IMG/VR virus record: IMGVR_UViG_2778261638_000005
Span: 1-64,000 of that record
From: a virus
Lineage: Duplodnaviria; Heunggongvirae; Uroviricota; Caudoviricetes
Direction: 5' to 3' (one strand)
DNA length: 64,000 bases
The notes under the pieces were generated by a model that had not been told where the DNA came from, ran no database searches, and worked only from the letters and a program-made list of their open reading frames with translations. A program made the translations under genes and the position numbers. Within the stretch, counting starts at the first letter, position 1; each line of letters starts with the position of its first letter. Positions 46,405 through 64,000 of the stretch are shown one piece after another.

Positions 46405-47923
46405 CCAGACGCCCCCATATATCGGCAACAAAAATGGCACGGGTCAGCATGTCGATAAGTTCTGCATCATCCATCTGCGGATATAATGAAGCGGCTTTGT
46501 TCATGGCGGCTTCCGGGCCATCTTTCAGCACAGAAAAAATGACGGGTTTCAGCAGGGGATCAACCGAACGCTGCCAGTCTTCCGGTGAGACGCCCATCCG
46601 GTCGATATCATCCTCCTGCGGGATATCTTCAGCGGATAATGCGGCCTCTTTCTGCGGACCGTTATCCATGACGACCGGTTGAGCAGTAAACACGGCTTCA
46701 TCACCGACCGGTTGTGGAATATGGAGTTTTTCCTGTATCCAGGAGACCGGAATACGCATTCCCGCCGCCAGTTTCGGAATGGCGTCAGACAGTGCCGTAA
46801 TATCACCCGCTTCACTGGTATCAAATACAATGCCCGGCAGGCGGTTAATATCAATGGTGCTGTCACTGTTCAGTGCCAGCAGGGGATAAATCAGGTCACG
46901 GTTAATACTGCGGGCAAGCTGGCCCACATCCGCATTACGGATTTCCCGGCGAACCTCATCATGCACTTCACCCAGCGACCGCGCACCTTTATCGCCAGCC
47001 TCTGTGGTCAGGGTGCCGCCCAGAATGGCTTTTGAAATCGCTTTTTCTGCCCAGCCAATCATCGCCATAAAAGGGTCTGACTGACCATCTGCGGCGCTCT
47101 GAAAATCCAGCGTCATCCCCATCGGAATAATGCCACCGGCACGTCGCCCGATATCCATCACGGCCTGCATCAGCGTGGCTTTCTCGCGGTTCGTTGAGCC
47201 GGTCGGATATTTACCGACGCGCATGGGGAGTCCGTAAATTTCCAGAAACTCTGCAAAATCACGCACGGAATAGTTTTTAAAAATAAAAGGCCAGATAAGC
47301 GTGCGCACAAGGCCATTGGTGCCGACATACCCGGTGCGGGATTTGGCCCGGTGCATAAACCAGCCGAACGGTTGCAGCTCCAGCCCGTGATAAGACGCAT
47401 CACGCAGGCGTAATTCGTTCAGATTGTCGGGGTTCGCGCAGAACAGCGCCGGATCGCGATGATGCAGCGCCACCGGCACGCGCATTTTCCCCAGCCAGCC
47501 CCATTCAATCTCCTGCATGGAATAGCCCTTGAGAATGGCATCACCGGCATCAAACAGGGCATCTTCAAACCACGCCGCATCATGCAGATATTCATTCAGC
47601 ATGTCGGCGTCTTTTTTCTCCTGTGCGCTGGCATCACGTGCCGGAGCGATGCGCCATTCCAGCGCCTGAATGGCAAGGCGGCGTTTGCTCAGTTCGGAAA
47701 AAAGGTGGGTGTCCTTTTCTTCCATATCAAAGGCCAGGTCAGCCTGTGCTGTCAGATCACCGCGTTCGGCATCACGCAGCATCTGCGCGGCCCGGTTCGG
47801 CGTCACACCACTGGAAGGATGCTCCTGCGTACGCTTCATGACCATTGCCAGCTCATCGCTGCGGGTCTGCATTTCATCGTCAAAATCAAACGGCTGCCCG
47901 GAAATATCCAGAATACGGCCCAT
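46385..47923 (-). CDS. Portal protein (Mu H/gp29-like), 512 aa
   Basis: ATGA overlap with terminase large-subunit stop; size. Confidence 0.8.
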   Translation of the reverse strand: MGRILDISGQPFDFDDEMQTRSDELAMVMKRTQEHPSSGVTPNRAAQMLRDAERGDLTAQADLAFDMEEKDTHLFSELSKRRLAIQALEWRIAPARDASAQEKKDADMLNEYLHDAAWFEDALFDAGDAILKGYSMQEIEWGWLGKMRVPVALHHRDPALFCANPDNLNELRLRDASYHGLELQPFGWFMHRAKSRTGYVGTNGLVRTLIWPFIFKNYSVRDFAEFLEIYGLPMRVGKYPTGSTNREKATLMQAVMDIGRRAGGIIPMGMTLDFQSAADGQSDPFMAMIGWAEKAISKAILGGTLTTEAGDKGARSLGEVHDEVRREIRNADVGQLARSINRDLIYPLLALNSDSTIDINRLPGIVFDTSEAGDITALSDAIPKLAAGMRIPVSWIQEKLHIPQPVGDEAVFTAQPVVMDNGPQKEAALSAEDIPQEDDIDRMGVSPEDWQRSVDPLLKPVIFSVLKDGPEAAMNKAASLYPQMDDAELIDMLTRAIFVADIWGRLDAAADH

Positions 47924-49578: not shown

Positions 49579-49585
49579 AACCCTC

Positions 49586-50176
49586 TCATGCCTTACCCAG
49601 CAGCACATCACGGATACGCTGCTCCAGCTCTTCGCTGATGCCATCCTGCCCGCGCAGTTCTTCACTGACGGCGTTTGCCGCTTCTTCTGCGAATGCCTGG
49701 CGGATTTCTTTCTCGCGCCGGTGGCTGGACATTGCCGTGGATTCCAGACGCTGTGCCGCCAGCATGGCATTTTTCAGCAGGTCAATATCCACGTCAGATT
49801 CCGGGTTTTCGATTTGCCGCATCATGGCCTTAAAAAGCTGGCTGCGGGCCATTTCCAGAATCAGCTTTGTGGTTTCTCCCATTGGCTTGTCACCAAGTTC
49901 TGCGGTCAGTGCTGACGTCATTTCACGCATCTGTCGCAGGTTATGGCCTACCTGCTCGACGTTCGTCGCGTAACGGTTCAGACCGGAACGGGAGAGTTTC
50001 ATCTCATCCGGCAGGCCAGCGTCTTCAATCAGTACGTTAATTTCTTCCAGAATGCGGGCCTGTGGGATCGCTTTATCACGCAGCATTTCATGCAGCGTTT
50101 TACGTACGTTTTCCGGCAGTAAATCCACTTTTGAAGCCCGGCCCCGTGTTTTCCTGTCCATCACGCCTCCTGTCAT
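49586..50176 (-). CDS. Terminase small subunit (Mu gp27-like), 196 aa
   Basis: Position before the large subunit; helical DNA-binding-type N-terminus. Confidence 0.65.
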   Translation of the reverse strand: MTGGVMDRKTRGRASKVDLLPENVRKTLHEMLRDKAIPQARILEEINVLIEDAGLPDEMKLSRSGLNRYATNVEQVGHNLRQMREMTSALTAELGDKPMGETTKLILEMARSQLFKAMMRQIENPESDVDIDLLKNAMLAAQRLESTAMSSHRREKEIRQAFAEEAANAVSEELRGQDGISEELEQRIRDVLLGKA

Positions 50177-50463
50177 GCACGGGGACGAGGACGCTTGACA
50201 CCGGCAACGCGGGCACGACCTTCCGCCACATCCTGACCTCGGGAGGTCAGCGTTACGACATAAAAGCCGCGCAGGTTTTCCACGGTGACCAGTTGCTGCT
50301 CTGCCAGCCAGTCAATCTGGCCGCGAACCACATCGCGGGAAACGTTGTGTCCGTATGCATCCAGACAGTCCTGAAGGATGGATTCGTTTGCTTCGTTATT
50401 GCAGTCCATCAGGGAACGCAGGATGACCAGACGACGGTCTTCGGTCAGAATATCGTTAATCAT
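50173..50463 (-). CDS. Mu gp26-like protein (96 aa)
   Basis: Position. Confidence 0.45.
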   Translation of the reverse strand: MINDILTEDRRLVILRSLMDCNNEANESILQDCLDAYGHNVSRDVVRGQIDWLAEQQLVTVENLRGFYVVTLTSRGQDVAEGRARVAGVKRPRPRA

Positions 50464-50777
50464 GAATTACTCCGGTTTACTGCGTTTTCAAGCAGCAGCT
50501 CCAGTTGATGGGAAAATGACTGCACCCGCTGGGACAGCACCCGGATATCGCCGGACAGCTCTGCAATTCGCAGGCGCATTTCGTGTACATCTTCTGTGCC
50601 AGGGATGCTGGCGTAGCGGGTTTCCATTTCGGTCATCCGGTTTTCAAGACGCTCCACACGCTCAGTGCTGGCAAAACTACGACGCATTGCCCAGACGGCC
50701 CCACCGGCCACAACAGGCAACAGGTAAGGCCATAACGCTAAAACTGAAATCAAATCCATTATTCTGCTCCACGGCAC
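50460..50777 (-). CDS. Mu gp25-like membrane protein (105 aa), possible lysis accessory (releasin-like)
   Basis: N-terminal hydrophobic segment ISVLALWPYLLPVVAGGAVWA then coiled coil; position in lysis region. Confidence 0.45.
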   Translation of the reverse strand: MPWSRIMDLISVLALWPYLLPVVAGGAVWAMRRSFASTERVERLENRMTEMETRYASIPGTEDVHEMRLRIAELSGDIRVLSQRVQSFSHQLELLLENAVNRSNS

Positions 50778-50953
50778 CAGTGGCAGTAGTTCGCCATCGG
50801 CTGCTGTCTCAGCACATCAGGCCGCAGCTCACGACCGCAACCGGCACACAATACAGGCGGGTCATACGCCGCCGGGCGGGGAATATCACGGGTATCCCCC
50901 TGCCAGAGTTCAGCGAGCAGCAGCGCCACCGCCCGGTTCTGGTCTTCGTTCAT
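50759..50953 (-). CDS. C4 zinc-finger protein (TraR/DksA-like, Mu gp24-like), 64 aa
   Basis: CxxC...CxxC motif. Confidence 0.45.
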   Translation of the reverse strand: MNEDQNRAVALLLAELWQGDTRDIPRPAAYDPPVLCAGCGRELRPDVLRQQPMANYCHWCRGAE

Positions 50954-51251
50954 AAATTTCTTTCCTTCGGGTCTCCTGTTCCCGGACTGATGCCTTGTCG
51001 CGGTTGCACTGCCCGAGCGCCATCAACAGGTCAGCATTCCAGAGAAGGGATGCTCCCCACGTCAGGGGCTGTGGCATGGGCGGAACGGGCGTTGCTTCCG
51101 TCAGTTCTGCATCAGTTTCGGGCAGGATCACCACCGATGGCACGGGTGCGTTTTTCGAGTTCCCGCAACCTGTCAGCAGCAACGGCAGGCACAGGACGAG
51201 TGCTGCAATTGTCACCGGTAATGGCGGTTGTAATTTTTTGTTTTGCATCAT
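50910..51251 (-). CDS. o-spanin (Rz1-like outer-membrane lipoprotein), about 113 aa, overlapping the i-spanin gene in another frame
   Basis: Signal peptide with lipobox LLLTGC, proline-rich mature part; starts inside Rz-like gene. Confidence 0.6.
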   Translation of the reverse strand: MMQNKKLQPPLPVTIAALVLCLPLLLTGCGNSKNAPVPSVVILPETDAELTEATPVPPMPQPLTWGASLLWNADLLMALGQCNRDKASVREQETRRKEIYERRPEPGGGAAAR

Positions 51252-51498
51252 GATGTTCTGTCTCGTCTGCCAGCCGCGCGGCACGATTTGCGGCACGGAT
51301 AGCGGAAAATACCTGCATCGTCTGTTCCTGACCGTGTAACAACCATTCAGCCGTGTTGCGGGCCTGTTGCTCCGTCTGTAATTCACGGCGCAGCGTCTGG
51401 TTATCGTGGCGGGTGCTGTCCAGCCTGTGCCACAACACCCCGGACAGAACGGCGGCAAACACGGCTGCCAGCAGTAAACTTTTACTGGCGAAGGTCAT
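51112..51498 (-). CDS. i-spanin (Rz-like), 128 aa
   Basis: N-terminal TM helix then coiled-coil; directly after the endolysin gene. Confidence 0.65.
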   Translation of the reverse strand: MTFASKSLLLAAVFAAVLSGVLWHRLDSTRHDNQTLRRELQTEQQARNTAEWLLHGQEQTMQVFSAIRAANRAARLADETEHHDAKQKITTAITGDNCSTRPVPAVAADRLRELEKRTRAIGGDPARN

Positions 51499-52000
51499 CC
51501 GCCCCCCTGATATTCCAGATAGCCATTTCCACTTCGCGACGGTTCATCAGTCCTTTCCATTTATGGCCTGCGGCAAACACCCAGCGGGCCATCTGGTCAC
51601 GCGCTCCGGCGTAATCACCGGCATTGAGTTTTTTCAGCAGCGTTGATTTACTGAATGCGGTAACACCGGTGTTGAAAATAAACGTTGCCAGCGCCGTTTT
51701 CTGATATGGCGTCAGCGGCACCCTGACAAGACGATCGATTGCCGCATAAACCGGTTTTAAATCACTGTCGAGAAGAGCCATACACTCCGCATGGCTGTAA
51801 CGGCGCATTTCGATATCCGGCCCGGTATGTCCCACACAGACCGTAAGCACACCGGCAATATCGCGGTAAGGCATATAAGCGATATTTTCCAGATGGATCA
51901 GAGACTGACGGGTCATTTCCTGATAACCACCCACACCGCCACCGGCAATCGTTGCCGCCAGCAGTGCGGCTTTCAGTTTTTTTGGTATCCCCGCCATCAT
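51482..52000 (-). CDS. SAR endolysin (T4-lysozyme-like muramidase with N-terminal signal-arrest-release helix), 172 aa
   Basis: N-terminal Gly/Ala-rich weakly hydrophobic helix followed by E...D...T catalytic spacing (ENIAYMPYRDIAGVLTVCVGHTG). Confidence 0.75.
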   Translation of the reverse strand: MMAGIPKKLKAALLAATIAGGGVGGYQEMTRQSLIHLENIAYMPYRDIAGVLTVCVGHTGPDIEMRRYSHAECMALLDSDLKPVYAAIDRLVRVPLTPYQKTALATFIFNTGVTAFSKSTLLKKLNAGDYAGARDQMARWVFAAGHKWKGLMNRREVEMAIWNIRGADDLRQ

Positions 52001-52091
52001 GCTTCCCTGAAAAAATGCGCTGATGGCAGTCTAAAAAATCAGATGGCAGGTGCGGGATTATGGTGACAGGAAATAACCGGCAGGATGCCGG

Positions 52092-52514
52092 TTATTTTGG
52101 GCTTTCAGGTGAGAACAGATCAGGCTGATGACGTCGTGTATGCAGCTTTCTCTGGCGGGCAATAATCTGGTAGATCTGCGGCTGGGACAGGCGGTACTGG
52201 CGACGCAGTTCTTCCATGTTACGACCATTAAACTGGCAGTAAAGCAAATCGTCACGTAACGCGGTCAGGATCGTATCGCCGCAGGGGATGTAAAACTGCC
52301 GTCCGCCCAGAAAACAGGACAGGGCAACGGCCTGTTTACGGGCAAGCTCACGGGGATTGCTGACGTTCTGGCGTTTCAGTTCGTTTTCCAGAACATCAAT
52401 CAGATCAACCACCGAACGGGGCCAGCGTGATTCCAGTTCCGGGGCCGGGATGTTATCAATATGTCCGATTAACTGGCGAATTGCCGGATCGTGTTCAAAT
52501 AAATCATGCTGCAT
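52092..52514 (-). CDS. Late-gene transcriptional activator C (Mor/C family), 140 aa
   Basis: Paralog of 53493..53882; C-terminal HTH; position directly upstream of lysis genes as in Mu. Confidence 0.7.
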   Translation of the reverse strand: MQHDLFEHDPAIRQLIGHIDNIPAPELESRWPRSVVDLIDVLENELKRQNVSNPRELARKQAVALSCFLGGRQFYIPCGDTILTALRDDLLYCQFNGRNMEELRRQYRLSQPQIYQIIARQRKLHTRRHQPDLFSPESPK

Positions 52515-52526
52515 ATTTTCCCCCGG

Positions 52527-52646
52527 TTAACAGACAGAAAGATACACCACGGCACTGATGGTTATCAGAACCACAAGGGCAATCACTTTTATCGCACTCA
52601 TCAGCGTGGACGGCCCGAAACATTCATCACTGAATTTTCTGTACAT
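52527..52646 (-). CDS. Possible 39-aa single-pass membrane peptide (MYRKFSDECFGPSTLMSAIKVIALVVLITISAVVYLSVC)
   Basis: Short ORF in the gap between GH108-like gene and C; one hydrophobic helix; weak RBS. Confidence 0.25.
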   Translation of the reverse strand: MYRKFSDECFGPSTLMSAIKVIALVVLITISAVVYLSVC

Positions 52647-52849
52647 GGTATTTTTCTCTGTAGCGCCGGCAATGGTGGATAATTTCTGGCATATCAACGG
52701 ACTGCCAGCCTTTCATGTAATAGCTCCCGTGGGTGCCATCGTGCCCTGTGTAATCCATTGGCTTTGGTGGCGGGCCTCCGGCCTCCCGATGTAATACCTC
52801 CTGTTGTAAACGTTCGCGCCTGCCGAACTGAAAGGACGCATCCCACCCT

Positions 52850-53410
52850 TTACCCATGCAGAACCTCCCGACAGGCGCTGGCGAGCAGATCCAGACGGTT
52901 AAACCAGCCATTCAGATATTTCCCCTGCGAGGCACTGGATTTGATAATCCCTGCGTAATAGCGGGAACGACGCAGGAAGCACTGCAACAGCAGCCAGTCA
53001 GTATCGGCACGCAGAACGGCTGCGCGTGTGTTTTTACCGACGATGCCATCATCATCAACACCTGCTGCCGCCTGGAGGATCTGAATCGCGCGTTTAACAC
53101 CGAGCTGAACGGCAGCATCAAAAACGAATAAGGAAACGCCATCAGGCCATTCGTTACACTTTGCCGCCAGCCAGTAATCACGCCAGTAGATCTGCGCCGC
53201 CTGCTCGCGGGTTAAATCCTTAATGCGGGTATCAGGTTTTCCGTCACCGTTAACATCGGTTTTGCCATCAATAACGCCGTCGCGACGGTCAGAGATACCG
53301 TATTTCGTTTCGCCGCCACGGTCAGTGGGATCATCAACATATCCACCTTCAACATCAGGTCGTATAACGAAATTCAGCGAATGAAGGAATGCAGGGGAAA
53401 ACTCAGGCAT
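52850..53410 (-). CDS. Glycoside hydrolase family 108-like muramidase with C-terminal peptidoglycan-binding domain (186 aa)
   Basis: Motif EGGYVDDPTDRGGETKYGI (GH108 signature) and DGIVGKNT (PG_binding_3-like). Confidence 0.65.
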   Translation of the reverse strand: MPEFSPAFLHSLNFVIRPDVEGGYVDDPTDRGGETKYGISDRRDGVIDGKTDVNGDGKPDTRIKDLTREQAAQIYWRDYWLAAKCNEWPDGVSLFVFDAAVQLGVKRAIQILQAAAGVDDDGIVGKNTRAAVLRADTDWLLLQCFLRRSRYYAGIIKSSASQGKYLNGWFNRLDLLASACREVLHG

Positions 53411-53492
53411 GTTGCCCTCCAGTCATGAACGTTTTGTCGTCACAACAGAATATTGAGGGCGTAAAAAAAGCCGGATTAACCGGCTTTACTGT

Positions 53493-53882
53493 TTACAGAA
53501 GTGAAGGCTGGTACTGGCGGTATTTCAGCCGTCGCATCCGGCGAATGGCCTTGTAAACCGTATTGAAAGTGACACCATAACGGGTGGTCAGTTCGCTGAC
53601 GTTGCGACCGTTAAAATCATTCCAGATACGCAAATCCCGAATCAGCGAGTCCAGAACCTGACCGCGCGGAATGTAGACCTGACCGCCCCCCAGATGCTTA
53701 CAGATAGCCACAACAATCTCCAGTGAATGAGCAGGATCAACACCCAGCCGGGACAATTCCCCGCGCAGTAAATCGTTCAGCTCCGCCAGCAGTGCCGGAA
53801 AGCGTGACGTATCCTCTGCGGGATTGTCAAGATGTGCCAGGATGGTGTCATCCTGCAAATCACCAAATAAATCTTCCGTCAT
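53493..53882 (-). CDS. Middle-operon regulator Mor (Mor/C family), 129 aa
   Basis: Paralog of C with conserved C-terminal HTH block; position after gemA. Confidence 0.7.
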   Translation of the reverse strand: MTEDLFGDLQDDTILAHLDNPAEDTSRFPALLAELNDLLRGELSRLGVDPAHSLEIVVAICKHLGGGQVYIPRGQVLDSLIRDLRIWNDFNGRNVSELTTRYGVTFNTVYKAIRRMRRLKYRQYQPSLL

Positions 53883-54430
53883 TGTGCCATCCTCCGCGTC
53901 TTTCTGGCATGGGCATAAGCCGCCGTCATGGCATCATAGCCGCGCAGTTCACGACCGGACGGACTGACCGGCAATGGAAGCCCGTGACGGGAAAAGGCTT
54001 CACGAATACAGCGGATGTGCCACTGCTTGAGTGTTTCGAGGACTGTCAGCAGCGTGTCGCCATGACACCACGCCAGTGTGGAAACGCCCTGTCCGCCGTT
54101 GCGTTTCGCGGTCAGGCGTTGAACATATCTGTCCAGCGCCACATCACCGCCATCGGTAATAAAACCGTCTTCTGCCATCTGCTGCCAGATTTTATACACC
54201 TTCTCGCGGGGTGTGACATGCCCCTTAAACCGACGGCGTGGGTGTTTATTCTGCTTCTTAAAGCCGCGTTCTTTCATGGCATCGAGCACCTGTTTCAGTT
54301 GCGTAACCGTAAGCTCGCGGCAACTGATTTTGCCCGTTTTCTGCATCAGAAAAGCGCGGTAAGTGTCGTCGTCGAGTTGTAGATCACGACGGGCGACATG
54401 AATTAATTTAATCAGGGATGTGCGACTCAT
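53879..54430 (-). CDS. GemA-like regulatory protein (about 183 aa from MSRTSLIKL)
   Basis: GGAGG RBS before ATG 54430; position before mor. Confidence 0.6.
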   Translation of the reverse strand: MSRTSLIKLIHVARRDLQLDDDTYRAFLMQKTGKISCRELTVTQLKQVLDAMKERGFKKQNKHPRRRFKGHVTPREKVYKIWQQMAEDGFITDGGDVALDRYVQRLTAKRNGGQGVSTLAWCHGDTLLTVLETLKQWHIRCIREAFSRHGLPLPVSPSGRELRGYDAMTAAYAHARKTRRMAQ

Positions 54431-54503
54431 GATCGTACCTCCGGAAAGGGGGCGGTGCTGCAACACCGCCTGTACTATTGATAACACTGAAAATGGAGAC
54501 AAC

Positions 54504-54743
54504 ATGTCTGTAGAAAACAATGCGTCAATCACTTTTAACCTGGTTTCAGGTCTGATGGTGAAACTTGTTCGTAACAAGATTCTGACAAAGTGGGAAGCTC
54601 AATCCATACTGGCCTCTGCAATTCTTGAAAACGTTCAGAACCAGGAGGGGGTTACTGATTCGGATCTTGATGCACTTCGTCTGAAACTTGCTATGTCGGA
54701 TTTCAGCGTTGAAAAAGAGCCTCCACAAGACGATCAGGCGTAA
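54504..54743 (+). CDS. Hypothetical 79-aa protein on the strand opposite to the Mu early operon
   Basis: ATGGAGACAAC-ATG (GGAG RBS) at 54504; overlaps the 3' end of the minus-strand gene 54703..54999. Confidence 0.4.
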   Translation: MSVENNASITFNLVSGLMVKLVRNKILTKWEAQSILASAILENVQNQEGVTDSDLDALRLKLAMSDFSVEKEPPQDDQA

Positions 54744-54999
54744 TCACGTCTGATGGTTTAAGTCCCAGCCTGCGGCGAATAAATGCGTCGCGGGCTTTTT
54801 TGTTATCCAGTGAAACTTCATCTGCAATAATATTAATTTCATGCTGGATAATATTCACAGTAACACGAGCAGAAAGCCCTTCACGGATAGCAATATCAAT
54901 AATATCGCGCATACGCTCAAGCATTTTAGCTTTCACCAGTTCTTCATCCAGGTCTTTAGGCGTAAATTTAGTTTCATTATTCATATTATTCACCTTCAC
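54703..54999 (-). CDS. Hypothetical early protein (98 aa)
   Basis: ORF in Mu semi-essential early region. Confidence 0.4.
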   Translation of the reverse strand: MKVNNMNNETKFTPKDLDEELVKAKMLERMRDIIDIAIREGLSARVTVNIIQHEINIIADEVSLDNKKARDAFIRRRLGLKPSDVITPDRLVEALFQR

Positions 55000-55168
55000 A
55001 ATTCATGCACGCCGTGTCATCGCCCATATCGCAGTGGTTGCATTTCAGCCCGCCACAATGAGGGCACTCTTTCAGATATTCAGGGGCTTCATTACCGCAG
55101 GTCGGACATGCCTGTTTCACCGTGGTAAATTTCCCCAGCCACGAATACGATGTTTCATTGTTTTCCAT
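54986..55168 (-). CDS. Hypothetical zinc-ribbon protein (60 aa)
   Basis: CPTCG...CPHCG...CNHC...CMNC motifs. Confidence 0.4.
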   Translation of the reverse strand: MENNETSYSWLGKFTTVKQACPTCGNEAPEYLKECPHCGGLKCNHCDMGDDTACMNCEGE

Positions 55169-55706
55169 TGTTTACCCCCGCCTGTTCCAGTGCCATAACT
55201 GGTGCGTCAGAACAGTCAAGAATGAGATAGCGCAGTACATGGTCGGTGATATTCCATGCGTTTGAGCTGCAAATAAAACGCCCTGGCCGGATATCAATAT
55301 AAGCCATCACAAAACGGGGCATTCCCTGTTCGCACATCCTGTTATCCACTTCTGCAACGATGTGAACGGATTCACAGGTCAGCACGCCCGTTGCAAACTC
55401 TTTTGCCAGCGCGGGGATGGTATTACCTTCCACCCAGGGTAATGAGCGACGCCAGTTGCACCACACCGCATCATCAACAGCAGGCTGCTCAGTTGCGTTT
55501 CGTCTTACAGGCGGCGTCGGACGTGGGCGCGGAACGTCATAAAATCCGTTGCATTCGGTGAGAACACCGGCATCAACCGCATCACGCAGGAAATACACCA
55601 TTGACGAGGGCAGCATATTCATTTTTTCAGCCAGAACCCCGCAGGTCAGACGCCCGTAAGCCCGTAATAATGTGCTGACACCATTCAGAACTTTTGCATC
55701 AATCAC
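55155..55706 (-). CDS. Hypothetical early protein (183 aa)
   Basis: ORF, translationally coupled. Confidence 0.45.
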   Translation of the reverse strand: MIDAKVLNGVSTLLRAYGRLTCGVLAEKMNMLPSSMVYFLRDAVDAGVLTECNGFYDVPRPRPTPPVRRNATEQPAVDDAVWCNWRRSLPWVEGNTIPALAKEFATGVLTCESVHIVAEVDNRMCEQGMPRFVMAYIDIRPGRFICSSNAWNITDHVLRYLILDCSDAPVMALEQAGVNNGKQ

Positions 55707-55709
55707 CGG

Positions 55710-56264
55710 TTATTCCTCCGTCAGCGCCACAAATTCAGAATGTTTAATGCGCTGGCATTCGGCGGGAACCGGTCCCTTCACTTCGCCAGCCAGAAGGTAC
55801 ACCGCAAACAAAATGCTGAATCCGTCACGGCTGTGGTGCATTTTCCACACGGACCTGATGTCAAACAGGTCAACGTCGGTAGCCACGTTAAGTTCATTGC
55901 ACAGCCAGCGCGGAAAATCCGGGTTTTTTTCGAGCTGATTTTCACAGTCCCGGATGAGCTTCCCGTACTCACGGCCTGCCGGTATTGTCATATCCGGCAT
56001 TGCGCCCCATAACTGAATATCACCAATGAAAAGTGTCCTTGATTTAATCTCCCATCCTTCCGGTGGTAAGTAGCTAAACCAGACATGCGTAACCCTCTCA
56101 GGCCCTTTGTCACCAGACAAAGACACACCGATTGCTTTCACTGATTGCTGTAATGACTCAATAATCTCACCACGCTTAACAGAAACCTCTTTCAGCCAGC
56201 GAATCGTATAACCGTTAGCGGCTGTGTCACTCAGTTTAAAATAAGCACATGCTTTCATTTTCAT
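55710..56264 (-). CDS. Hypothetical early protein (184 aa)
   Basis: ORF downstream of gam. Confidence 0.45.
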   Translation of the reverse strand: MKMKACAYFKLSDTAANGYTIRWLKEVSVKRGEIIESLQQSVKAIGVSLSGDKGPERVTHVWFSYLPPEGWEIKSRTLFIGDIQLWGAMPDMTIPAGREYGKLIRDCENQLEKNPDFPRWLCNELNVATDVDLFDIRSVWKMHHSRDGFSILFAVYLLAGEVKGPVPAECQRIKHSEFVALTEE

Positions 56265-56355
56265 TCTCTCCGGTTCTGATTAAGGCGCGAGTAGTCCTCT
56301 GACGCATCGCGCCATAATTAAACGAATGTGAATTAATTAAATATTAATGGTGGTA

Positions 56356-56880
56356 TTAAATACCGGCTTCCTGTTCAAACGGAATAATGGAAAAATCTTC
56401 AATTCCCGATTTAACCGTAATTCCGGCAACACCTGCGACGGCTTTTGGTTCCAGTAAAATCGCCTCCTTGTTGATTTCCTGCTTCGTGCGAATAAAGCGT
56501 TGCAGGCCAAGACGCTCCAGCGTTTCCATCACTGCATCCATACCACGAATACTTACTGATGGTGGACGGACCCGCCACGATACATCACCGGTGACAAGAT
56601 TCGCCGTCTTCACTTTGCCGCCGTTCGTCAGTTCGTCGCGGTTCGCTTCACACCATCCCTGAACGCCTTTTGAAAGGGTTTCAATATCGGTTTTAATCGG
56701 TGCAATTCGGGCCGCAAATTTCTCCGTAATTTCCGCGATGGCATCATTCATTTCCGTTTCCAGACGTGATGCTTCGCGCTGTAAATCCCCGATGCGTTTA
56801 ATATCGGTAATCACCGCATCGCGGTTTTGTGGCACATAAGCCGCTGCGGCACTCTTGATACGTTTTGCTGGTTTAGCCAT
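56356..56880 (-). CDS. gam: Gam host-nuclease inhibitor (Mu Gam-like), 174 aa
   Basis: Size, coiled-coil N-half, position in Mu early region. Confidence 0.75.
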   Translation of the reverse strand: MAKPAKRIKSAAAAYVPQNRDAVITDIKRIGDLQREASRLETEMNDAIAEITEKFAARIAPIKTDIETLSKGVQGWCEANRDELTNGGKVKTANLVTGDVSWRVRPPSVSIRGMDAVMETLERLGLQRFIRTKQEINKEAILLEPKAVAGVAGITVKSGIEDFSIIPFEQEAGI

Positions 56881-56899
56881 AAATTAAAGCTCCTGTTAA

Positions 56900-57199
56900 T
56901 TAATATCCGCTGTATACAATGCTGGATACAGCTCGATTGCTTAATTCCATCTTTCGGGCAATGACATGAATATCCAGTCCTTCTTTATAAAGTTCACGAC
57001 ATAAATATTTGTCGTGTTCACTGATTCGGTATACACACAATGATATTCCGTGCCTTCTGGCATGTGCCCGGAGGGCGGTTGTGGCGACTTTCAGTTTTTC
57101 CGCCATTTCTTCAACGGTCATTTTCCCGACGTTGGCTTCGATAAATTCCCGGTCTTCGCGTGACCAGCGCTTACGATTATACTTCATGTCAGCCACCAT
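56900..57199 (-). CDS. Hypothetical HTH-like early protein (99 aa)
   Basis: Two helix-turn-helix-like segments. Confidence 0.4.
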   Translation of the reverse strand: MVADMKYNRKRWSREDREFIEANVGKMTVEEMAEKLKVATTALRAHARRHGISLCVYRISEHDKYLCRELYKEGLDIHVIARKMELSNRAVSSIVYSGY

Positions 57200-57619
57200 T
57201 CAGTACAGCAGAGGCTCGCGCAGTGATGCCGGAATATGCCGCAGCGATAACTGAACCGCTTTCAGGGCAAGCGAGGAATAACAGCAGCGCGCCCAGCCTT
57301 TTGCCATTAACCGGTAATCGCGCCAGATACGCTGCCACATTTCACGGGCTTCAGGGTCTGATGCGCAGATGTATTCCCGGTCCATGACGTACTCCCATAA
57401 ATCCACGTTGAACGCACCGCCAAATGCAATGGCGCGGGATATGCTTTCGCCGCAATAACGCGCACAGATGCTGTAATGGTCGAAAGCAATCAGGTAAGTC
57501 TTTTCACCACAATCATCAACTTTTCGGGCGCAAATAAACTCGCGTAATTCACCACCGTTGTTATTGCGTTCCTGAATTCGGATTAATGCCTGAATTTCAT
57601 TTCGGATTTTGACGTTCAT
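57200..57619 (-). CDS. Hypothetical early protein (139 aa), Cys-rich
   Basis: ORF between B and gam (kil-region position). Confidence 0.4.
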   Translation of the reverse strand: MNVKIRNEIQALIRIQERNNNGGELREFICARKVDDCGEKTYLIAFDHYSICARYCGESISRAIAFGGAFNVDLWEYVMDREYICASDPEAREMWQRIWRDYRLMAKGWARCCYSSLALKAVQLSLRHIPASLREPLLY

Positions 57620-57639
57620 TGTCAGCGTTCCTTTGCGAA

Positions 57640-57909
57640 TTAATGTTTAACCACATTCACCGGACGTGGTACTAAATCACATTCAGCTTCCATACCCACT
57701 TTCTTCATAGTGGTCAGCATCTCATCTTTGGCCTTTTTAATAATTTCAGGAGCCATAGTCAGGACTATATTTGCCAGTAAATCATGAGGCCCGGTATTTT
57801 CCGTTGGCGAGATATCTGCAAGACATGCTTTTGCATCCAGAACTTCTCTGCGCCCATTGCAACTGTCACTACTTTCCAGCCATGTAAACTCAAAGATAAC
57901 CTTTGCCAT
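57640..57909 (-). CDS. Hypothetical early protein (89 aa)
   Basis: ORF. Confidence 0.35.
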   Translation of the reverse strand: MAKVIFEFTWLESSDSCNGRREVLDAKACLADISPTENTGPHDLLANIVLTMAPEIIKKAKDEMLTTMKKVGMEAECDLVPRPVNVVKH

Positions 57910-57929
57910 TTTTCTTCTCCTTATTGATT

Positions 57930-58175
57930 CTAAATAACTGCGCTGGCTTTTACCTTCGCGCCTTTTACCTGCTTAAAGAAAACTGCGCTGCACCACGGAC
58001 AACATGTCAGGGAATCCCGAATTTCCTTTTCGGGTGAGCATTGCGTCATAATCTGTTCACCGCATCCTGGGCATTTATATGTCGTCAGCGGCACCCCGTG
58101 GCACTGACAGTGTTTAACCCATTCAATATATTTTTCAGCTTTAATACACATCGTTATCTCCAGATAATCTGGCAA
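57930..58175 (-). CDS. Hypothetical Cys-rich early protein (81 aa)
   Basis: ORF with CPGCG and CCPWC motifs. Confidence 0.35.
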
Positions 58176-58381
58176 CCATTAAGACGGGCCGTCCATACAG
58201 AACGGGCCACCCCGGACTTATGCTCCATAATTCTGACCGCGTTTTTTACCAGTTCCACCGGTGGGTAAGTGATTTCAAGAATCGGACGCGCCACGCCGAG
58301 ATATGATTCATTTACATGACTCCCGCGCGCCTGTAACCAGTTCTGCGCATCCGTTGCCATTTTTATATTTCGTGACATCAT
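58154..58381 (-). CDS. Hypothetical early protein (75 aa)
   Basis: ORF directly downstream of B. Confidence 0.35.
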
Positions 58382-58392
58382 TATTTATCCCC

Positions 58393-59325
58393 TTACCACC
58401 AGTTCAGTAATTTCGGGTTGCTGTAAACCTCTTTAAAAGCTGCTTTAATGTAGCCTTTGGATAGAGGAACGCCTTTCCCGCTGGCAGCCAGCCACGCCTG
58501 ATTCAGCGTATGAGTTAATACACGTAATGCACCTGGTTTTTCCGCGATGCTCTGCATGAGTGATAATTCATCTTCGCCCTCAATGCCCCAGGCTTTCGCA
58601 ATTGCCACCACGTCAGCCTTTTTGGCTTTACGTAGTTGCTTTGTTCTGGCGAAACGACTGAACAAACGTGCAAGGTCATCTGTTCCCCGGTGTGTGGCTT
58701 TGGCTAACTGGTGTGGGTTGCCAATCAATACCATCCCGACGCCGGTTGCATCCTGAATGGCGCGTAACTGCTCCAGCCCGTCCATGCTCAGGTGGTCAGC
58801 TTCATCCACAATAACCAGACCGCGTGTGCCATTCAGTTTTTTGCGAATGGCGCGGGTCAATGCGCCTTTATTCCTTTGCGGATTATCAATTCCCAGCGCG
58901 TCTGCCAGCTCCAGCAGACACTCAGTCACTGTTGAGTGTGCAGGGGAAAGGGTCACCATCCAGGTATTAGATACACGGTTACTGTATTCACGGGCCGCAA
59001 CGGTTTTACCAACACCCGGCACACCAACCAGAACGCTGATACAGCCCATAACACGCACGGTCTGAAACAGCTCGCGCAAATCACGGAGGGTTTGTGTTTC
59101 CACAAGTTGTGGTGCGCCAGGTAACTCCAGACTTTTTTGCCAGCTCTGATGCCACATCAGTAATTTGTCATGCATCCCTTCGGTATCACCTTTGTAACGG
59201 CCTTTGCGAAGTTCAGAAAGAGTGGCCTCCGACACCCCCGCTTCTTTAGCAATAGCGCTTTGTGTTTTTACGCCGTCAGTAATAAGTGTGTTAATCGTGT
59301 TGAAAACATCATTAATATCGGTCAT
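58393..59325 (-). CDS. Transposition ATPase B (MuB-like AAA+), 310 aa
   Basis: N-terminal HTH, Walker A GVPGVGKT, Walker B VIVDEADHL; follows A. Confidence 0.85.
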   Translation of the reverse strand: MTDINDVFNTINTLITDGVKTQSAIAKEAGVSEATLSELRKGRYKGDTEGMHDKLLMWHQSWQKSLELPGAPQLVETQTLRDLRELFQTVRVMGCISVLVGVPGVGKTVAAREYSNRVSNTWMVTLSPAHSTVTECLLELADALGIDNPQRNKGALTRAIRKKLNGTRGLVIVDEADHLSMDGLEQLRAIQDATGVGMVLIGNPHQLAKATHRGTDDLARLFSRFARTKQLRKAKKADVVAIAKAWGIEGEDELSLMQSIAEKPGALRVLTHTLNQAWLAASGKGVPLSKGYIKAAFKEVYSNPKLLNWW

Positions 59326-59398
59326 ATTATTCTCCGTTTATTCAAATCAGCTTTGTTTCCTTCGTTTAACAGTCCGTTCCCGCGGACTGTTTTTTTAT

Positions 59399-61486
59399 TC
59401 AGGCCAGCGGATCATCCTGTTCCTGTATGGCTACAAGCTTCTGCAAACCCAGCCTGAAATCGCGTTCATAATCTTCGTCGTAATCCTCCTCATAATCCTG
59501 TTGCTGGATGGTTACCGTATTGCCAACCGGGCGATAAACATTATCCAGCCAGGGTTCAGCCTGTTTGTGCTCCAGTATCTGAATGCCTTCATCCTCAGCA
59601 TCACGAATTTTTTCCTCAGCACGTTTGCGCATTCCTTTAATACGCTGCTGTTGTTTGTGATATTCAGCACTGACAGCAAAGGCTGCGCGTTTATTGCCGT
59701 TCCATATCGCCTCACAGATAAAGCTGCCGTCCTTGCGACGTACCGTAATTCGCTCGGCGTCATGAATGTCATAACTGATAAGTACTTTGCGACCGTGTTC
59801 GTCACGCAACTCCGGCGCGTAGTAAATATTGTTCAGCCACTGAATTTCGCACCGTCTTACCGGGCGTTCCACCATCGGGCGGAACATGTCGCGCAGCTCA
59901 AGATCACTCAGCCACTCAATTTCGGTGCCTTCTTCTGCCAGGCGTTTTTTTCTGAACTCTGCCGGGCTGTAATGCCGCCCGTTCGGTTTCATTGGCAGCT
60001 CAGAATGCGGGCGGTTGTTGTACCATTCCACGCCTTCACGAATAGCCTCAATAAGCTCCGCCCACGATGGTAGCTCGCGCATTGCAGCTTTCTGGCGGTC
60101 GTTCAGAGGCTTGTCCTGTTGCATGGCGTTAAACGCTGAACGCAGATCACGGTTAAGTACACGCAACGATTCCCGGTCAGCACCCTTGCCAAAATAGGTG
60201 CGATACCTCCTGGCTATACGCATCGGCAGTGTCCGGTTCAGGCGTTCAATAATGCCGCGCCCCTGTGGATTACCGGCAATACCGGTAGGGTGTTTAATCC
60301 CCAGGCGGGGCAGAATACCCACGATCTCTTTGTCCAGTATGTCAGCCGTTTCACCAGAACCATTATCCGAGTAATACAGAAACGGTTTTCCGTGGTTGCG
60401 AATGCCGTGCTGTATCGCACCGGCAACGGCGAACACGTTCTCGGCAAGGTCAAGACTCCAGCCAACAACAAACCGGGTTCCACCGTCGATCACAAATGTA
60501 ACTTCCGGTGAGAATGGACGCCCGTGGATCGGATGTGCACATTTCAGCTTCATACCGTGACCGTCACCAATCCAGACATAATTCACCGGCATAGCTGTCC
60601 AGTCGCGGCGGGTGAATCCTTCAAGCTGACGGTATTCACTGCCGGTAACGCGCCCTTTTTGTTTCACCACTTCCGGCAGTTTTTTCATGGCATACCGGAC
60701 AACATCATAGGAAGGCATCACCTCCAGCATGTATGGTTCGTCCGCATGGCGACGCTGCCAATCAGCGACAAAATCCTCATAGGCTTCAGACATAGGCCTG
60801 CCGTTAGCCTGACGATACTGCGCCAGAAATTCAGGCAGCCAGCTAATTTCTTCCGGTTTTATTTCGTCGCGCTTTCCTGGTGCCAGTAACAGCAGTCGTT
60901 CTGCGGCATTCTGTGCTTTGTTAAACGCAGCTATCCAACGTTTGAGCGTAATTGCGCTCAGAGTTCGCTCTTTTCCTTTACGGGCATTAGCAGTAATGAC
61001 CAAAGATTCCAGGCGTTCTTCCAGGTTACCCTGCGCTAACCGCGACACAATAAAACGTATAGCGCTGGCACAACTGAATCCCGGCTCCTGGCTAATTCGT
61101 AGAACTTCACAGACAAGAGCAATGCGCGCTTCTGCAACTTTACGTTGATTTTCCGTAAGCGCATTCAGACGCTCTTCTACCAATTGTGGCGAACCGCGAT
61201 ATGCCTCAACAGGCTGTACAACATTTTGTTTGCGTTCACGCTTTACAGGAGGCTGGGTAGTTATCTCCCGCGGGGCGCTTGCCATCAGTTGAGCTACATG
61301 TCGCTCACGTAACGCCCGTTGTGTAACCGGAGGGAGGCAGTCGATGCTGTATTCAATGGTTTTTGAACCCGCACGTTTGCGCCTGAAATGCTCAGATGAG
61401 GCCAGTTTCCTTATGGAATACCGCACCCCTTGCGCAGTTCCCGGCATACCTGGTAACCCTACAAGCTCATTAACTGATACAAACAT
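59399..61486 (-). CDS. DDE transposase A (MuA-like), 695 aa
   Basis: Size, position after ner, N-terminal end-binding-type domain, acidic C-terminus. Confidence 0.85.
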   Translation of the reverse strand: MFVSVNELVGLPGMPGTAQGVRYSIRKLASSEHFRRKRAGSKTIEYSIDCLPPVTQRALRERHVAQLMASAPREITTQPPVKRERKQNVVQPVEAYRGSPQLVEERLNALTENQRKVAEARIALVCEVLRISQEPGFSCASAIRFIVSRLAQGNLEERLESLVITANARKGKERTLSAITLKRWIAAFNKAQNAAERLLLLAPGKRDEIKPEEISWLPEFLAQYRQANGRPMSEAYEDFVADWQRRHADEPYMLEVMPSYDVVRYAMKKLPEVVKQKGRVTGSEYRQLEGFTRRDWTAMPVNYVWIGDGHGMKLKCAHPIHGRPFSPEVTFVIDGGTRFVVGWSLDLAENVFAVAGAIQHGIRNHGKPFLYYSDNGSGETADILDKEIVGILPRLGIKHPTGIAGNPQGRGIIERLNRTLPMRIARRYRTYFGKGADRESLRVLNRDLRSAFNAMQQDKPLNDRQKAAMRELPSWAELIEAIREGVEWYNNRPHSELPMKPNGRHYSPAEFRKKRLAEEGTEIEWLSDLELRDMFRPMVERPVRRCEIQWLNNIYYAPELRDEHGRKVLISYDIHDAERITVRRKDGSFICEAIWNGNKRAAFAVSAEYHKQQQRIKGMRKRAEEKIRDAEDEGIQILEHKQAEPWLDNVYRPVGNTVTIQQQDYEEDYDEDYERDFRLGLQKLVAIQEQDDPLA

Positions 61487-61488
61487 TT

Positions 61489-61725
61489 TTATGCCACCTT
61501 ACGAGCGTAACGGCTGGGCCAGATCTCCTCCGGCGCAACACCAATAGCATCAGCAATAATGCGCTCATATTTTGGGCATTTGCGGTACAGGGCATTCTTT
61601 AAAGAATCCTGGTTTAAACCGGCTTCAATGGACAGAGAGCGTAAAGTAAAACCTTTTACATGCACCGCCGCGACAACATGCGCGGGGTGCCAGTCCTGTT
61701 TAACAACTTCATTTATAGACATCAT
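61489..61725 (-). CDS. ner: Ner-like DNA-binding regulator (78 aa from MMSINEV)
   Basis: C-terminal ...EEIWPSRY matches the Ner signature; AAGGA RBS before ATG 61725. Confidence 0.8.
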   Translation of the reverse strand: MMSINEVVKQDWHPAHVVAAVHVKGFTLRSLSIEAGLNQDSLKNALYRKCPKYERIIADAIGVAPEEIWPSRYARKVA

Positions 61726-61865
61726 TCGTTTATCCTTAAAAGTTATCTGCGCGGATAACACCGCCGGATAATCTCTACAGATAAATATTTGATCACTACA
61801 AAAGAAAAGTAAAGGTGTTTTATCTCTTTCTTTGGTTGTTTTTATCTACAAAAGGATATTTCTTT
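61726..61865. promoter_or_regulatory. Divergent early/repressor control region with repeated TTATC/GATAA half-sites (putative operators)
   Basis: TTATCTGCGCGGATAA palindrome at 61733..61748 and further GATAA/TTATC repeats between ner and c. Confidence 0.5.
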
Positions 61866-62450
61866 ATGAATCATATGGTTAACAGAAAAGAAAGAAGCAC
61901 TGAAAAAGAAAGTGATTTTTCTTTTCCTGTGTTTCAAAAAGAAAGCATTAAAGAGCGCCTAGCCATGCTAATGCGCGGGCGCTCCAAGACTGCCGTGGCG
62001 AAGGCGTGGGGGCTACCGTTCTCAACACTTAACAACTACTTTGAGAAAGATGCGACACCATCTCTACAAGTAGCTAGTCAGATTGCTTTTGCAGAAGGGG
62101 TGAGCATTGATTGGCTTGTTTTTGGCAAGGAGGATATAGAACCAATATCACCTAAAATAGATGAAAACGTCCAATTGCCCCTAGATATAACGCTACAGCG
62201 CCTTCTTGCTATACTAAGTGCTTTAGAAGCATCAGAGGCAGAGCGATTATCAAAAATCCTCGCGCTAAATGGAGCTAAGTACTTGTCACGGTTACTTGAA
62301 CCAGAGAATCAAGAACTAATCCAACTTGAAGGACGAAAACGTGCAGCAGCTCTACTTTTAGATCATTTATCGGATGAAAGAGTTAGAGAGATTTTGGCAG
62401 AAATTGAAAGCGATAAACTCTCAAGTAGTTTAGAATCGAAGGCGGGCTAA
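61866..62450 (+). CDS. Repressor c (Mu Rep-like), 194 aa from MNHMVNRK
   Basis: Divergent from ner at the element left end; N-terminal HTH-like segment; AAAGGA RBS. Confidence 0.6.
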   Translation: MNHMVNRKERSTEKESDFSFPVFQKESIKERLAMLMRGRSKTAVAKAWGLPFSTLNNYFEKDATPSLQVASQIAFAEGVSIDWLVFGKEDIEPISPKIDENVQLPLDITLQRLLAILSALEASEAERLSKILALNGAKYLSRLLEPENQELIQLEGRKRAAALLLDHLSDERVREILAEIESDKLSSSLESKAG

Positions 62451-62507
62451 TTCCAATAGCCCGCGGCTGGTTTTTTAACCTGTTTAAAACGTTAAAATCG
62501 CAGAAAT

Positions 62508-62672
62508 CAGTAGTATCAAATATTTTTTCGTTTTTAGCTTTCTTTGCGACAGTAGTATCAAATCACATGTTGTGCGCATAACACTGTTTTACGTCATAAC
62601 TGTTTGTTTTATCCCATCAAATCCCGTTTGATCCACTTTCCTCCCGGATTTTTCAGCAGTATCAAATGATTT
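62508..62672. repeat. Left-end transposase-binding-type repeats (CAGTAGTATCAAAT x3)
   Basis: Copies at 62508..62521, 62550..62563 and 62654..62667 (third is CAGCAGTATCAAAT); reverse complement of the motif at the right end. Confidence 0.6.
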
Positions 62673-63391
62673 ACCTCTCTATAGCACCCGAAACTTCGCC
62701 CTGGTGGATGGTAAACGTCTCTCCCTGTTTCCGGAGGCGTACTCATGGGTTCTGGCTTTGCCTGTATGCTGATCACCGGATCGGGTATCTGCTGTCCGGA
62801 AGCCACCTTTTTCGCCCAATCATCGAGCAGCCTGCGCGCGTGTTTCTCAACCTCAATCTCGCTAAGCTGGCGCTGATACATTGCACGGCGGGTATCACAT
62901 ACGACCCAGTACATAACCGGATGCCGCCACGGGAATCTTTCGGGACCACCAGGATATAAACTTTTTTCCTTGCTGTACCGGTGAAACTCCGTCATCACAT
63001 CGTCAATGGTGACGCCAAGAACCATCTTGCTGTCTTTGCACCACTTGATGAATTGCCCTGGCGACGGCCAGAACGGAGAATCACTGGCGCGGGCGTGGCG
63101 CATACCAGCAGAAACCTGTTCACGGGTTCGGATCCCCCCTTCAGCAAACGCAGCAATCCACTGCTGTTTTGCAGCAACTTCCTGCTCTGGCGTCTTCAGG
63201 TTGGTTACCACTGCCGCCGGAAACAGTTGTTTCAACTGTTTGAAAAGGGCATCAACAAGCCTCTCTGCTGACATGTTCACTACGTTGTCATTGTTGGTGT
63301 ACTGATGCTCATAACCTGACATGCGAGAAAGGGCCTCTCCGTCACGGTTTTGTATTGCGGTAAAAACGTTGTTCACAAGAAATCCTCCCAT
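62609..63391 (-). CDS. Lambda P-like replication protein (helicase loader); 3'-terminal about 25 codons derive from the Mu-like end
   Basis: VSAGMRHARASDSPFWPSPGQFIKWCKD aligns with lambda P VNAGMRVARRQNRPFLPSPGQFVAWCRE (recollection); reading frame runs across the inferred insertion junction. Confidence 0.7.
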   Translation of the reverse strand: MGGFLVNNVFTAIQNRDGEALSRMSGYEHQYTNNDNVVNMSAERLVDALFKQLKQLFPAAVVTNLKTPEQEVAAKQQWIAAFAEGGIRTREQVSAGMRHARASDSPFWPSPGQFIKWCKDSKMVLGVTIDDVMTEFHRYSKEKSLYPGGPERFPWRHPVMYWVVCDTRRAMYQRQLSEIEVEKHARRLLDDWAKKVASGQQIPDPVISIQAKPEPMSTPPETGRDVYHPPGRSFGCYREVNHLILLKNPGGKWIKRDLMG

Positions 63392-64000
63392 GCTTCAGGG
63401 CTGTTCCAGTGCGGAACGTTGTTATCAGGTAATGTTGATTGCTTCTGTCTGCTAATCTGCAGCCGCCTTGCCAGCTTCTGCTCCCACTGTGCCTGATGGT
63501 ATGCCTTACCCTCAGCCATCCAGTAAATTCTGAACTCTGCAAGTTCCTGTGCCGTTGGCAGACTGTCCAGGTAGATCCCCTGCAATGAGCTTTTCCGAAG
63601 AAAGTCATCTGATGGCTGCCATTGTTCATGCATGACAAATTTGCCTAATTGCCCTGGCCCACCAGGAGGAACAAAGTTATTCATCACGGCGTTGTTTGCG
63701 CCGGGGTCATGAGGCACAGAATTCCCGTTTTTTGTCCTGCTCTCCCTCTCTTGGTTAAATGACTGGTTATATGACTGGTTCTGGATCCCGTTTTTGGGAT
63801 CATTCAACATCCCGTTTTTGGGATCATTCAACATCCCGTTTTTGGTTATATTACCGTTTTCGGGAACATTACCGTTTTCGGGTTCATTCCCCCCTTCCCG
63901 GTTGCCTTTAATGTTCCCGTTTTTGGTTATATTAAGAGAGAAAACCCGCACTCTTTTCGTCGCTCCCTTTCTCTCTTCGGTATCTGAAATAAGCCCCATT
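63373..64000 (-). CDS. Lambda O-like replication initiator, C-terminal part (5' end outside window)
   Basis: Immediately upstream of P-like gene; coding region contains iteron array; Asn/Gly-rich repeats encoded by the iterons. Confidence 0.55.
   Translation of the reverse strand, partial: MGLISDTEERKGATKRVRVFSLNITKNGNIKGNREGGNEPENGNVPENGNITKNGMLNDPKNGMLNDPKNGIQNQSYNQSFNQERESRTKNGNSVPHDPGANNAVMNNFVPPGGPGQLGKFVMHEQWQPSDDFLRKSSLQGIYLDSLPTAQELAEFRIYWMAEGKAYHQAQWEQKLARRLQISRQKQSTLPDNNVPHWNSPEAWEDFL
63722..63936. repeat. Iteron array (ori-lambda-type) inside the O-like gene
   Basis: Core CCCGTTTTT(G)G about six times; two full 24-bp units (C/G)ATCCCGTTTTTGGGATCATTCAA at 63785..63832, each an ATCCC...GGGAT inverted repeat; A/T-rich on the low-coordinate side. 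Confidence 0.65.

Follow-up and report, generated by a model that had tools for sequence, protein, structure and literature searches.

The stretch of DNA analysed here (positions 1 to 64,000 of the IMG/VR virus record IMGVR_UViG_2778261638_000005; hereafter the window, 64,000 nucleotides (nt) in full) contains a Mu-like transposable prophage lying between the two parts of the replication gene P of another prophage. The Mu-like element spans 25775..62683 on the minus strand, i.e., 36,909 base pairs (bp) in reverse orientation within the 64-kb window, with its left end (repressor/ner/transposase side) at 62683 and its right end (mom/com/gin side) at 25775. These boundaries were set by 10 copies of the element in differing flanks, and similarity to other genomes breaks off at 62683 and 25775. 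Junction searches in 5426 complete E. coli genomes returned two classes of matches; i.e., Mu-like elements at unrelated loci and genes annotated as 'replication protein P', whose similarity to the window begins at 62684. A preliminary description of the window had placed the left end of a Mu-like element at this locus, and our comparisons support this; however, its terminus at 62686 was 3 nt away from the last base of the element, 62683. The element is a Mu-like transposable prophage of the type of Yersinia phage vB_YpM_5, and its left end and target junction lie within 62500..62720.

At the left junction, an open reading frame (ORF) of 260 codons (62609..63391, minus strand) crosses from the host prophage into the Mu-like element and ends ...GRSFGCYREVNHLILLKNPGGKWIKRDLMG (terminal string ...GCYREVNHLILLKNPGGKWIKRDLMG). 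Residues 1-236 (62684..63391, minus strand), which end ...GRSFGC, constitute the host-prophage part of the P gene and are 99.8% identical to the intact P locus of E. coli WP3-S18-ESBL-09 (L001); RefSeq homologues of P start 5 codons later, at 63376. The foreign tail (62609..62683, minus strand) consists of the 24 codons YREVNHLILLKNPGGKWIKRDLMG (YREV...LMG) and a stop codon, all from the left end of the Mu-like element. The intact P protein in L001 ends ...GRSFGCMPNAATLGGITPAQWLMEEYRRGKAAGFIK, i.e., ...GRSFGC-MPNAATLGGITPAQWLMEEYRRGKAAGFIK. The displaced 3' end of the gene, MPNAATLGGITPAQWLMEEYRRGKAAGFIK and its stop codon, is present beyond the right end of the element at 25678..25770 (minus strand; coding part 25681..25770), matches the C-terminus of the L001 protein without a difference, and now lacks both a promoter and a start context. 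The insertion point is thus codon 236/237 of P, with the last 30 codons stranded 36.9 kb off. The fusion at ...GRSFG and the displaced C-terminus had both been recognized in the preliminary description, with small differences; the Cys codon that it had counted into a Mu-derived tail of 25 residues lies in the 4-bp duplication and is host-derived, leaving 24, and the displaced segment starts at a Met, one residue before the Pro at which it had been made to begin.

When the two flanks of the element were joined synthetically, the join was matched over at least 80% of its length in 530 of the 5426 genomes, mostly at 95-99.6% identity; at the matched loci, the gene annotated as 'replication protein P' is uninterrupted, and a DUF1064 gene comes after it. 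L001 gave the best match: its positions 1363..2679 aligned with the right-hand flank of the element (99.8%) and its positions 2676..3685 with the left-hand flank (99.7%), so that the flanks are adjacent there and overlap by exactly 4 bp (GCAC). This alignment of intact P homologues with both flanks had been suggested as a check in the preliminary description, and it showed the two flanks to be contiguous. The window has one copy of GCAC on the left-end side of the element (62684..62687), corresponding to the flank overlap in L001, and another on the right-end side (25771..25774).

The junction between P and the Mu end that is present in the window was found in none of the 5426 complete E. coli genomes; therefore, the present end of the ORF is not a natural P terminus. 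An exact junction search in one genome per species also gave no match. The same fusion protein is encoded on a 140-kb contig of assembly GCA_002542025.1, and an independent assembly of run SRR3988035 also contains it, which indicates that it did not arise as an error of one assembly. For this look-up, the 260-residue ORF failed, and the 255-residue form with a GTG start, as called by RefSeq-style gene callers, matched. We conclude with high confidence that the locus resulted from ordinary transposition of a Mu-like phage into the P gene of a resident prophage. In this event, the element transposed into codon 236/237 of P of a TL-2011b-like prophage, duplicating GCAC.

Both ends of the element carry repeats. 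At the left end, CAGTAGTATCAAAT is present at 62508 and 62550 and CAGCAGTATCAAAT at 62654, exactly where the preliminary description had located three repeat sites; the farthest starts 176 bp from the terminus, in agreement with its estimate of about 180 bp. When up to 3 mismatches were allowed, the CAGTAGTATCAAAT-type pattern had 12 matches in the window against 3.97 expected, a number that none of 100 shuffles reached. With at most 1 mismatch, the three left-end sites were the sole matches in the whole window. The 8-mer core TTTGATAC occurs nine times (1.86 expected), and six of these copies are located at the element ends, within 171 bp of one and 82 bp of the other, 36.9 kb apart and all facing inward. 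On the minus strand, the cores start at 62513, 62555 and 62659; on the plus strand, they start at 25792, 25814 and 25849, forming the inverted right-end counterpart that had been proposed for the left-end repeats. We refer to the left-end copies (minus strand) as the L1-like repeat (62654..62667; core 62659..62666, nt 18-25 from the end), the L2-like repeat (62550..62563; core 62555..62562, nt 122-129) and the L3-like repeat (62508..62521; core 62513..62520, nt 164-171), and to the right-end copies (25792..25856, plus strand) as the R1-, R2- and R3-like repeats, with cores at 25792..25799, 25814..25821 and 25849..25856.

The left ends of five elements, including the 74%-identical STEC388 element and one Sp18-like element, were aligned; the TTTGATAC blocks at nt 18-25, 122-129 and 164-171 were invariant, and the intervening sequence drifted. 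The right-end cores at nt 18-25, 40-47 and 75-82 were likewise invariant across relatives. At both ends, the first core lies 18 nt from the tip, and the left end (5'-TATAGAGAGGTAAATCATTTGATAC, read from outside in) and the right end (5'-TAAAGCGCGCAAAATCATTTGATAC) are in perfect mutual register. By analogy with MuA, which binds L1-L3 and R1-R3 of Mu, we infer that the six TTTGATAC repeats may be binding sites of the element's transposase. The transposase would assemble on these terminal repeats, cut after the terminal TA-3' and join the element ends to target phosphates with a spacing of 4 bp.

The spacer between the L1- and L2-like repeats (62609..62646, minus strand) accounts for most of the foreign codons of the fusion ORF and is identical to nt 31-68 of Mu (AF083977) at 31 of 38 positions. 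This Mu-like spacer has been kept although the adjoining repeats are unrelated to those of Mu and the two transposases are 22% identical. Its likeness to Mu is not conserved in the Sp18-like element. The Mu pac site has reportedly been mapped between L1 and L2, and the spacer of the window element might be a packaging or architectural site. A reference-genome search yielded only two loci with transposase relatives, L016 (Shigella flexneri SFBU1023, 1240..1400) and L017, which are uninformative for the window element itself; their transposase is 82% identical, and the adjoining end has a different repeat, TTCAAGATAA, and no TTTGATAC. These two loci hint that end specificity may change rapidly.

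Next to the termini of the element, the target duplication was exactly 4 bp in all nine simple insertions: GCAC in the window (P gene), TTAA in L002, TCAC in L003, GGCT in L004, TATC in L005, TTCG in L006, TGCC in L007, AACA in L008/L009 and CGCA in L012/L013. The insertion sites were the P gene, ydcO, ydcV/patD, glpT, rlmB, an epimerase gene, a monooxygenase gene, sslE and a DUF945 gene. Two of the nine duplications, those in the P gene and in glpT, were checked on empty sites; the glpT empty site, rebuilt with one copy of the 4 bp, was identical to other genomes at 300 of 300 positions. The termini are 5'-TAAAGCG...CTCTATA-3', i.e., 5'-TA...TA-3', in which the terminal T and A are constant and the flanking bases vary. 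Moving the ends by one base would give a 5-bp duplication, but this was rejected because it fits only two of the nine insertions and throws the ends out of register. The tenth copy (L010/L011, E. coli FDAARGOS_1059) has unrelated flanks, with genes for an SDR oxidoreductase and an ABC permease, and no duplication, which suggests an element-associated rearrangement.

The same termini were found in virion-derived sequence. In vB_YpM_5 (MT374853, L022), the phage sequence stops at ...GCGCGCTTTA and restarts approximately 80 nt on at TATGAAGAGG, with foreign DNA between. That is, the 'circular' record includes approximately 80 nt of non-phage DNA at 345..433, between the right and left ends, presumably virion-carried host DNA that was collapsed by the assembler. 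The elements in L005 (E. coli TD225-C4) and L007 (E. coli E300082) have the same ends, the same spacer, a related early region and a 4-bp duplication; 21% of the window element was matched in their DNA at approximately 88% identity, no match was found between 26693 and approximately 53930, and their late genes have no DNA-level likeness to those of the window element. Therefore, the transposition module is common to two differing late-gene backbones.

TG-CA termini were conserved in all Mu-like and B3-like phages described up to 2021, with duplications of 5 or 6 bp, and TA-TA ends were reported as new in Leptospira, their existence elsewhere being left open (PMC8705779). In the open-access literature, we found no paper describing a 4-bp duplication for a Mu-like phage. 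In LC727881, a related Sp18-like element bears the depositors' annotation of a 4-bp 'duplication due to insertion'; therefore, the 4-bp feature had already been noticed in a database record. We tentatively propose, with slightly less than even confidence, that Mu-like phages of the vB_YpM_5 type in Escherichia and Yersinia may transpose by a variant of the Mu mechanism that has not been described before, with TA-3' cleavage at both ends and a 4-bp stagger.

We then considered what the insertion would mean for the P protein. The P ORF matched Pfam PF06992 with 191 bits over profile positions 2-162 of 162 and matched lambda P structure chains (PDB 8V9T, 6BBM) with E = 6.8e-32 over residues 1-204, identifying it as a P homologue, i.e., a helicase loader of the lambda P type. 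Coverage of phrog_109 was 2-210 of 236 for the interrupted ORF and 1-236 for the intact homologue. The C-terminal 57 residues of intact P alone matched phrog_109 positions 204-236 (E = 0.0045), and the lambda P tail matched positions 187-233; the sequence used for lambda P residues 203-233 is consistent with the residues named in PMC12661323 and was matched strongly by PHROG profiles. The displaced tail had been described as loosely resembling the lambda P tail. Pairwise BLASTP gave no alignment between the two, but both map to the end of the phrog_109 profile; unlike lambda P, the window P has a longer linker before its C-terminal helix, and its tail matches at the profile level only.

Domain IV of lambda P (residues 193-233) is a C-terminal lasso that binds DnaB; each protomer makes its DH-LH contact through this lasso, which probably engages DnaB before any other segment does (PMC12661323). 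In the window, the C-terminal lasso segment is not attached to the P core, and the missing part is encoded at 25678..25770. At the profile level, the displaced 30-residue tail, which contains ITPAQWLMEEYRRGKAAGF, maps to the DnaB-binding lasso of the lambda P family. The insertion would thus remove the helix that docks on the DnaB DH-LH interface in lambda P and would inactivate the loader. If the truncated P has lost its DnaB-docking lasso, the host prophage would no longer be able to load DnaB at its origin, and it is probably replication-defective.

Other explanations of the junction were weighed against these results. The present C-terminus could be a natural variant of P that the Mu-like element merely adjoins, as the ORF has 260 open codons with a full-length Pfam P domain at residues 45-205. 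However, none of the 5426 complete genomes has this ending, and in 530 of them the gene continues into the sequence now at 25678..25770; the ORF ends in 75 nt of conserved mobile-element tip that is present at other loci too, and phrog_109 coverage halts at 210 of 236. A natural ending is refuted by the uninterrupted loci, the absence of the junction and the 4-bp overlap of the flanks, and we regard it as practically inconceivable. It is extremely unlikely that the junction was produced by a rearrangement (a Mu-mediated inversion or deletion) or by an assembly chimera of mis-joined contigs. Rearrangements do occur in this family, given the unrelated genes on either side of the FDAARGOS_1059 copy and its lack of a duplication; however, the window flanks are contiguous in the intact prophage with an exact 4-bp overlap, the duplication is as long as in the eight other simple insertions, and the fusion protein is also present in an independent assembly of a sequencing run.

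The functions assigned to the repeats and to the interrupted gene also have alternatives. The three left-end repeats lie directly downstream of the repressor gene and could be repressor/Ner operators for immunity control instead of the putative transposase sites. The same core, however, occurs three times at the far right end, inverted, at an equal distance of 18 nt from the tip and conserved among relatives, and the expected location of operators is the interval that separates the divergent genes for the repressor and Ner, near 61760..61870. We therefore consider an operator role very unlikely. The fusion P might also still be a working helicase loader, so that the insertion would be phenotypically silent for the host prophage, as domains I-III of the lambda P fold are kept (Pfam; PDB alignment to lambda P residues 1-202). 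Against this, the DH-LH contact that the lasso makes in every lambda P protomer would be lost (PMC12661323), the 24 foreign residues have no likeness to the lasso, and a working P would still leave the prophage with an additional 37 kb of DNA; a functional loader is quite unlikely. Several points weigh against our own interpretation, i.e., transposition by way of the terminal repeats into P with loss of the loader. The tail of this P family has only a weak similarity to lambda P (on its own, it matched the profile with E = 0.0045), the C-terminal helix is on a longer linker than that of lambda P, the loss of P function is deduced from sequence, and the transposase-site role of the repeats rests on analogy and conservation.

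The gene content of the element is that of a transposable phage. Leftward from 62683, the genes encode a CI/XRE-type repressor, a Ner-type helix-turn-helix (HTH) protein, a transposase of 695 residues, a MuB homologue and Gam; the right-end side encodes a Gin-like invertase, Com and Mom. Pfam detected Mom (252.8 bits), a resolvase (Gin-like) domain with HTH_7, the Ner-type HTH and Mu transposase domains, and PHROGs detected the transposase, the DNA transposition protein and Gam. The annotation of relatives includes Com, a Mu-like head subunit and related proteins. The copy in L004 covered 93.7% of the window element at 97.6% identity. The repressor gene (61866..62450, plus strand; PF07022, PF01381; phrog_3037) has a CI/XRE-type HTH and reads toward the left end; its homologues in relatives are annotated at 585 nt, and a terminator-like hairpin (62442..62464) follows it.

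The transposase (59399..61486, minus strand) is a DDE transposase distantly related to MuA that matched PF09299 (66.7 bits; cutoff 21.7), PF02316 (29.2 bits; cutoff 23.3) and phrog_310 (E = 2.5e-200). In BLASTP, it is colinear with MuA over its full length at 22% identity (E = 9e-14), and D308 and D374 align to MuA D269 and D336. The third catalytic residue would be E414 in GIIERLNR, which BLAST places 3 columns off. A MuB-like AAA+ transposition protein (58393..59325, minus strand; phrog_296) is encoded next to the transposase and is 44% identical to MuB (E = 1e-89). In Mu, the N-terminal DNA-binding domain of the repressor is related to the enhancer-binding domain of MuA; such pairing is absent in the window element. 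The N-terminal 62 residues of its transposase resemble the MuA enhancer-binding domain (PDB 1TNS, E = 5e-5), yet its repressor is of the CI/XRE type.

In the interrupted prophage (window 1..25774 and 62684..64000), the replication module is of the lambda O-P type, and the virion genes are those of a podovirus. Counterparts in O157 typing phages 9 and 10, in TL-2011b and in podoviruses related to them (39-45 kb) share 97-98% identity with its terminase, its connector (head-tail adaptor), its head proteins and its large tail proteins. The label 'lambdoid' used in the preliminary description therefore applies to the O-P module, but the host prophage is a TL-2011b-like podovirus. Between its replication genes and its terminase, there is neither a late-regulator block nor a lysis block. 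With 37 kb added, it would probably be too large for its own capsid. The 3' part of an O-like initiator gene (63373..63999, minus strand) encodes a Pfam DnaT domain, and its intact homologue is annotated in L001. The gene contains iteron-like repeats (63752..63911), including a 24-bp unit, ATCCCGTTTTTGGGATCATTCAAC, in 2.5 copies at 63785..63845, a 12-bp unit in 2.4 copies and degenerate CCGTTTT(C/T)GGG copies. This region is presumably the origin of the prophage.

We compared the element with known phages. Its gene order of repressor, ner, transposase, MuB homologue and Gam, with Mom/Com/Gin at the far end, is that of Mu (AF083977), as is the layout of the ends, with a terminal repeat followed by two more approximately 100 and 145 nt in at the left and three close-packed repeats at the right. 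The left-end repeats of Mu, as read off its sequence, are at approximately nt 7-27, 110-131 and 150-172. Each Mu end reportedly has three MuA sites, according to Craigie, Mizuuchi and Mizuuchi in 1984. The L1-L2 spacer, the right tip (TAAAGCG in the window, TGAAGCG in Mu) and insertion at many unrelated sites are further likenesses. In contrast to Mu, the window element has a transposase that is 22% identical to MuA, a core TTTGATAC that is unrelated to the Mu end repeats, a repressor of the CI/XRE type instead of the Mu c type, TA...TA instead of TG...CA termini and a duplication of 4 instead of 5 bp. The ends appear to be evolutionary hybrids in which the Mu L1-L2 spacer and right-tip heptamer were kept and all six transposase sites were replaced. 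SfMu was rejected as the identity of the element because SfMu is more than 90% Mu/D108-like and the window transposase is 22% identical to MuA.

The closest isolates are the Yersinia phages vB_YpM_5 and vB_YpM_6 (MT374853, MT374854), which share 96.4% nt identity from repressor to transposase and at the left end, and have the same end sequences. They were isolated as plaque-forming phages, propagated on Y. pestis and described as Mu-like in the accessible part of the report (PMC10434027), which makes no mention there of ends, termini or a duplication. As these phages form plaques, the lineage is active. Unlike these free phages, the element in the window is integrated, with a prophage of the E. 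coli type around it.

The Sp18-like phages in Stx-converting prophages of Shiga toxin-producing E. coli (STEC) (LC727881; PMC10132054) resemble the window element in being Mu-like phages within another prophage. LC727881 has approximately 81% DNA identity in the transposase region, the TTTGATAC core in its end repeats and the annotated 4-bp duplication. It differs in its left tip, which is 5'-TG (CA-3') instead of the TA of the window (the right tip of the Sp18-like element is TA), in an L1-L2 spacer without Mu likeness, and in its target gene and host prophage. The TA-TA prophages of Leptospira (WETA1 group; PMC8705779), compared here as they are described, share 5'-TA...TA-3' termini and a transposable prophage of approximately 37-40 kb; they differ in having 6-bp duplications and a B3/Tn552-family transposase and in belonging to another phylum.

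A Mu-like phage inside another prophage is a known kind of event that has already been documented in STEC; in closed genomes of clonal complex 119, 6 of 10 Mu-like phages were located inside other mobile elements, several of them in Stx phages (PMC10132054). Our finding explains the broken replication gene of one prophage and marks that prophage as probably grounded, which can be used for annotation and for predicting prophage inducibility. The non-canonical ends and the 4-bp duplication are the part of the result most worth following. They reveal a plaque-forming enterobacterial Mu-like lineage with TA termini and a 4-bp stagger, while the MuB homologue, the end spacer and the right tip stay Mu-like; the late and accessory genes of this TA-terminus lineage are also, at least in part (mom/com, invertase, head), of the Mu type. 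The lineage is a natural comparison for the Mu transpososome with respect to the role of the terminal CA and to what sets the spacing of the strand-transfer sites. If the reading as a mechanistic variant is true, it would answer for enterobacteria the question of TA-TA phages outside Leptospira (PMC8705779) and would provide a natural system, workable in E. coli, for studying the function of the conserved terminal CA.

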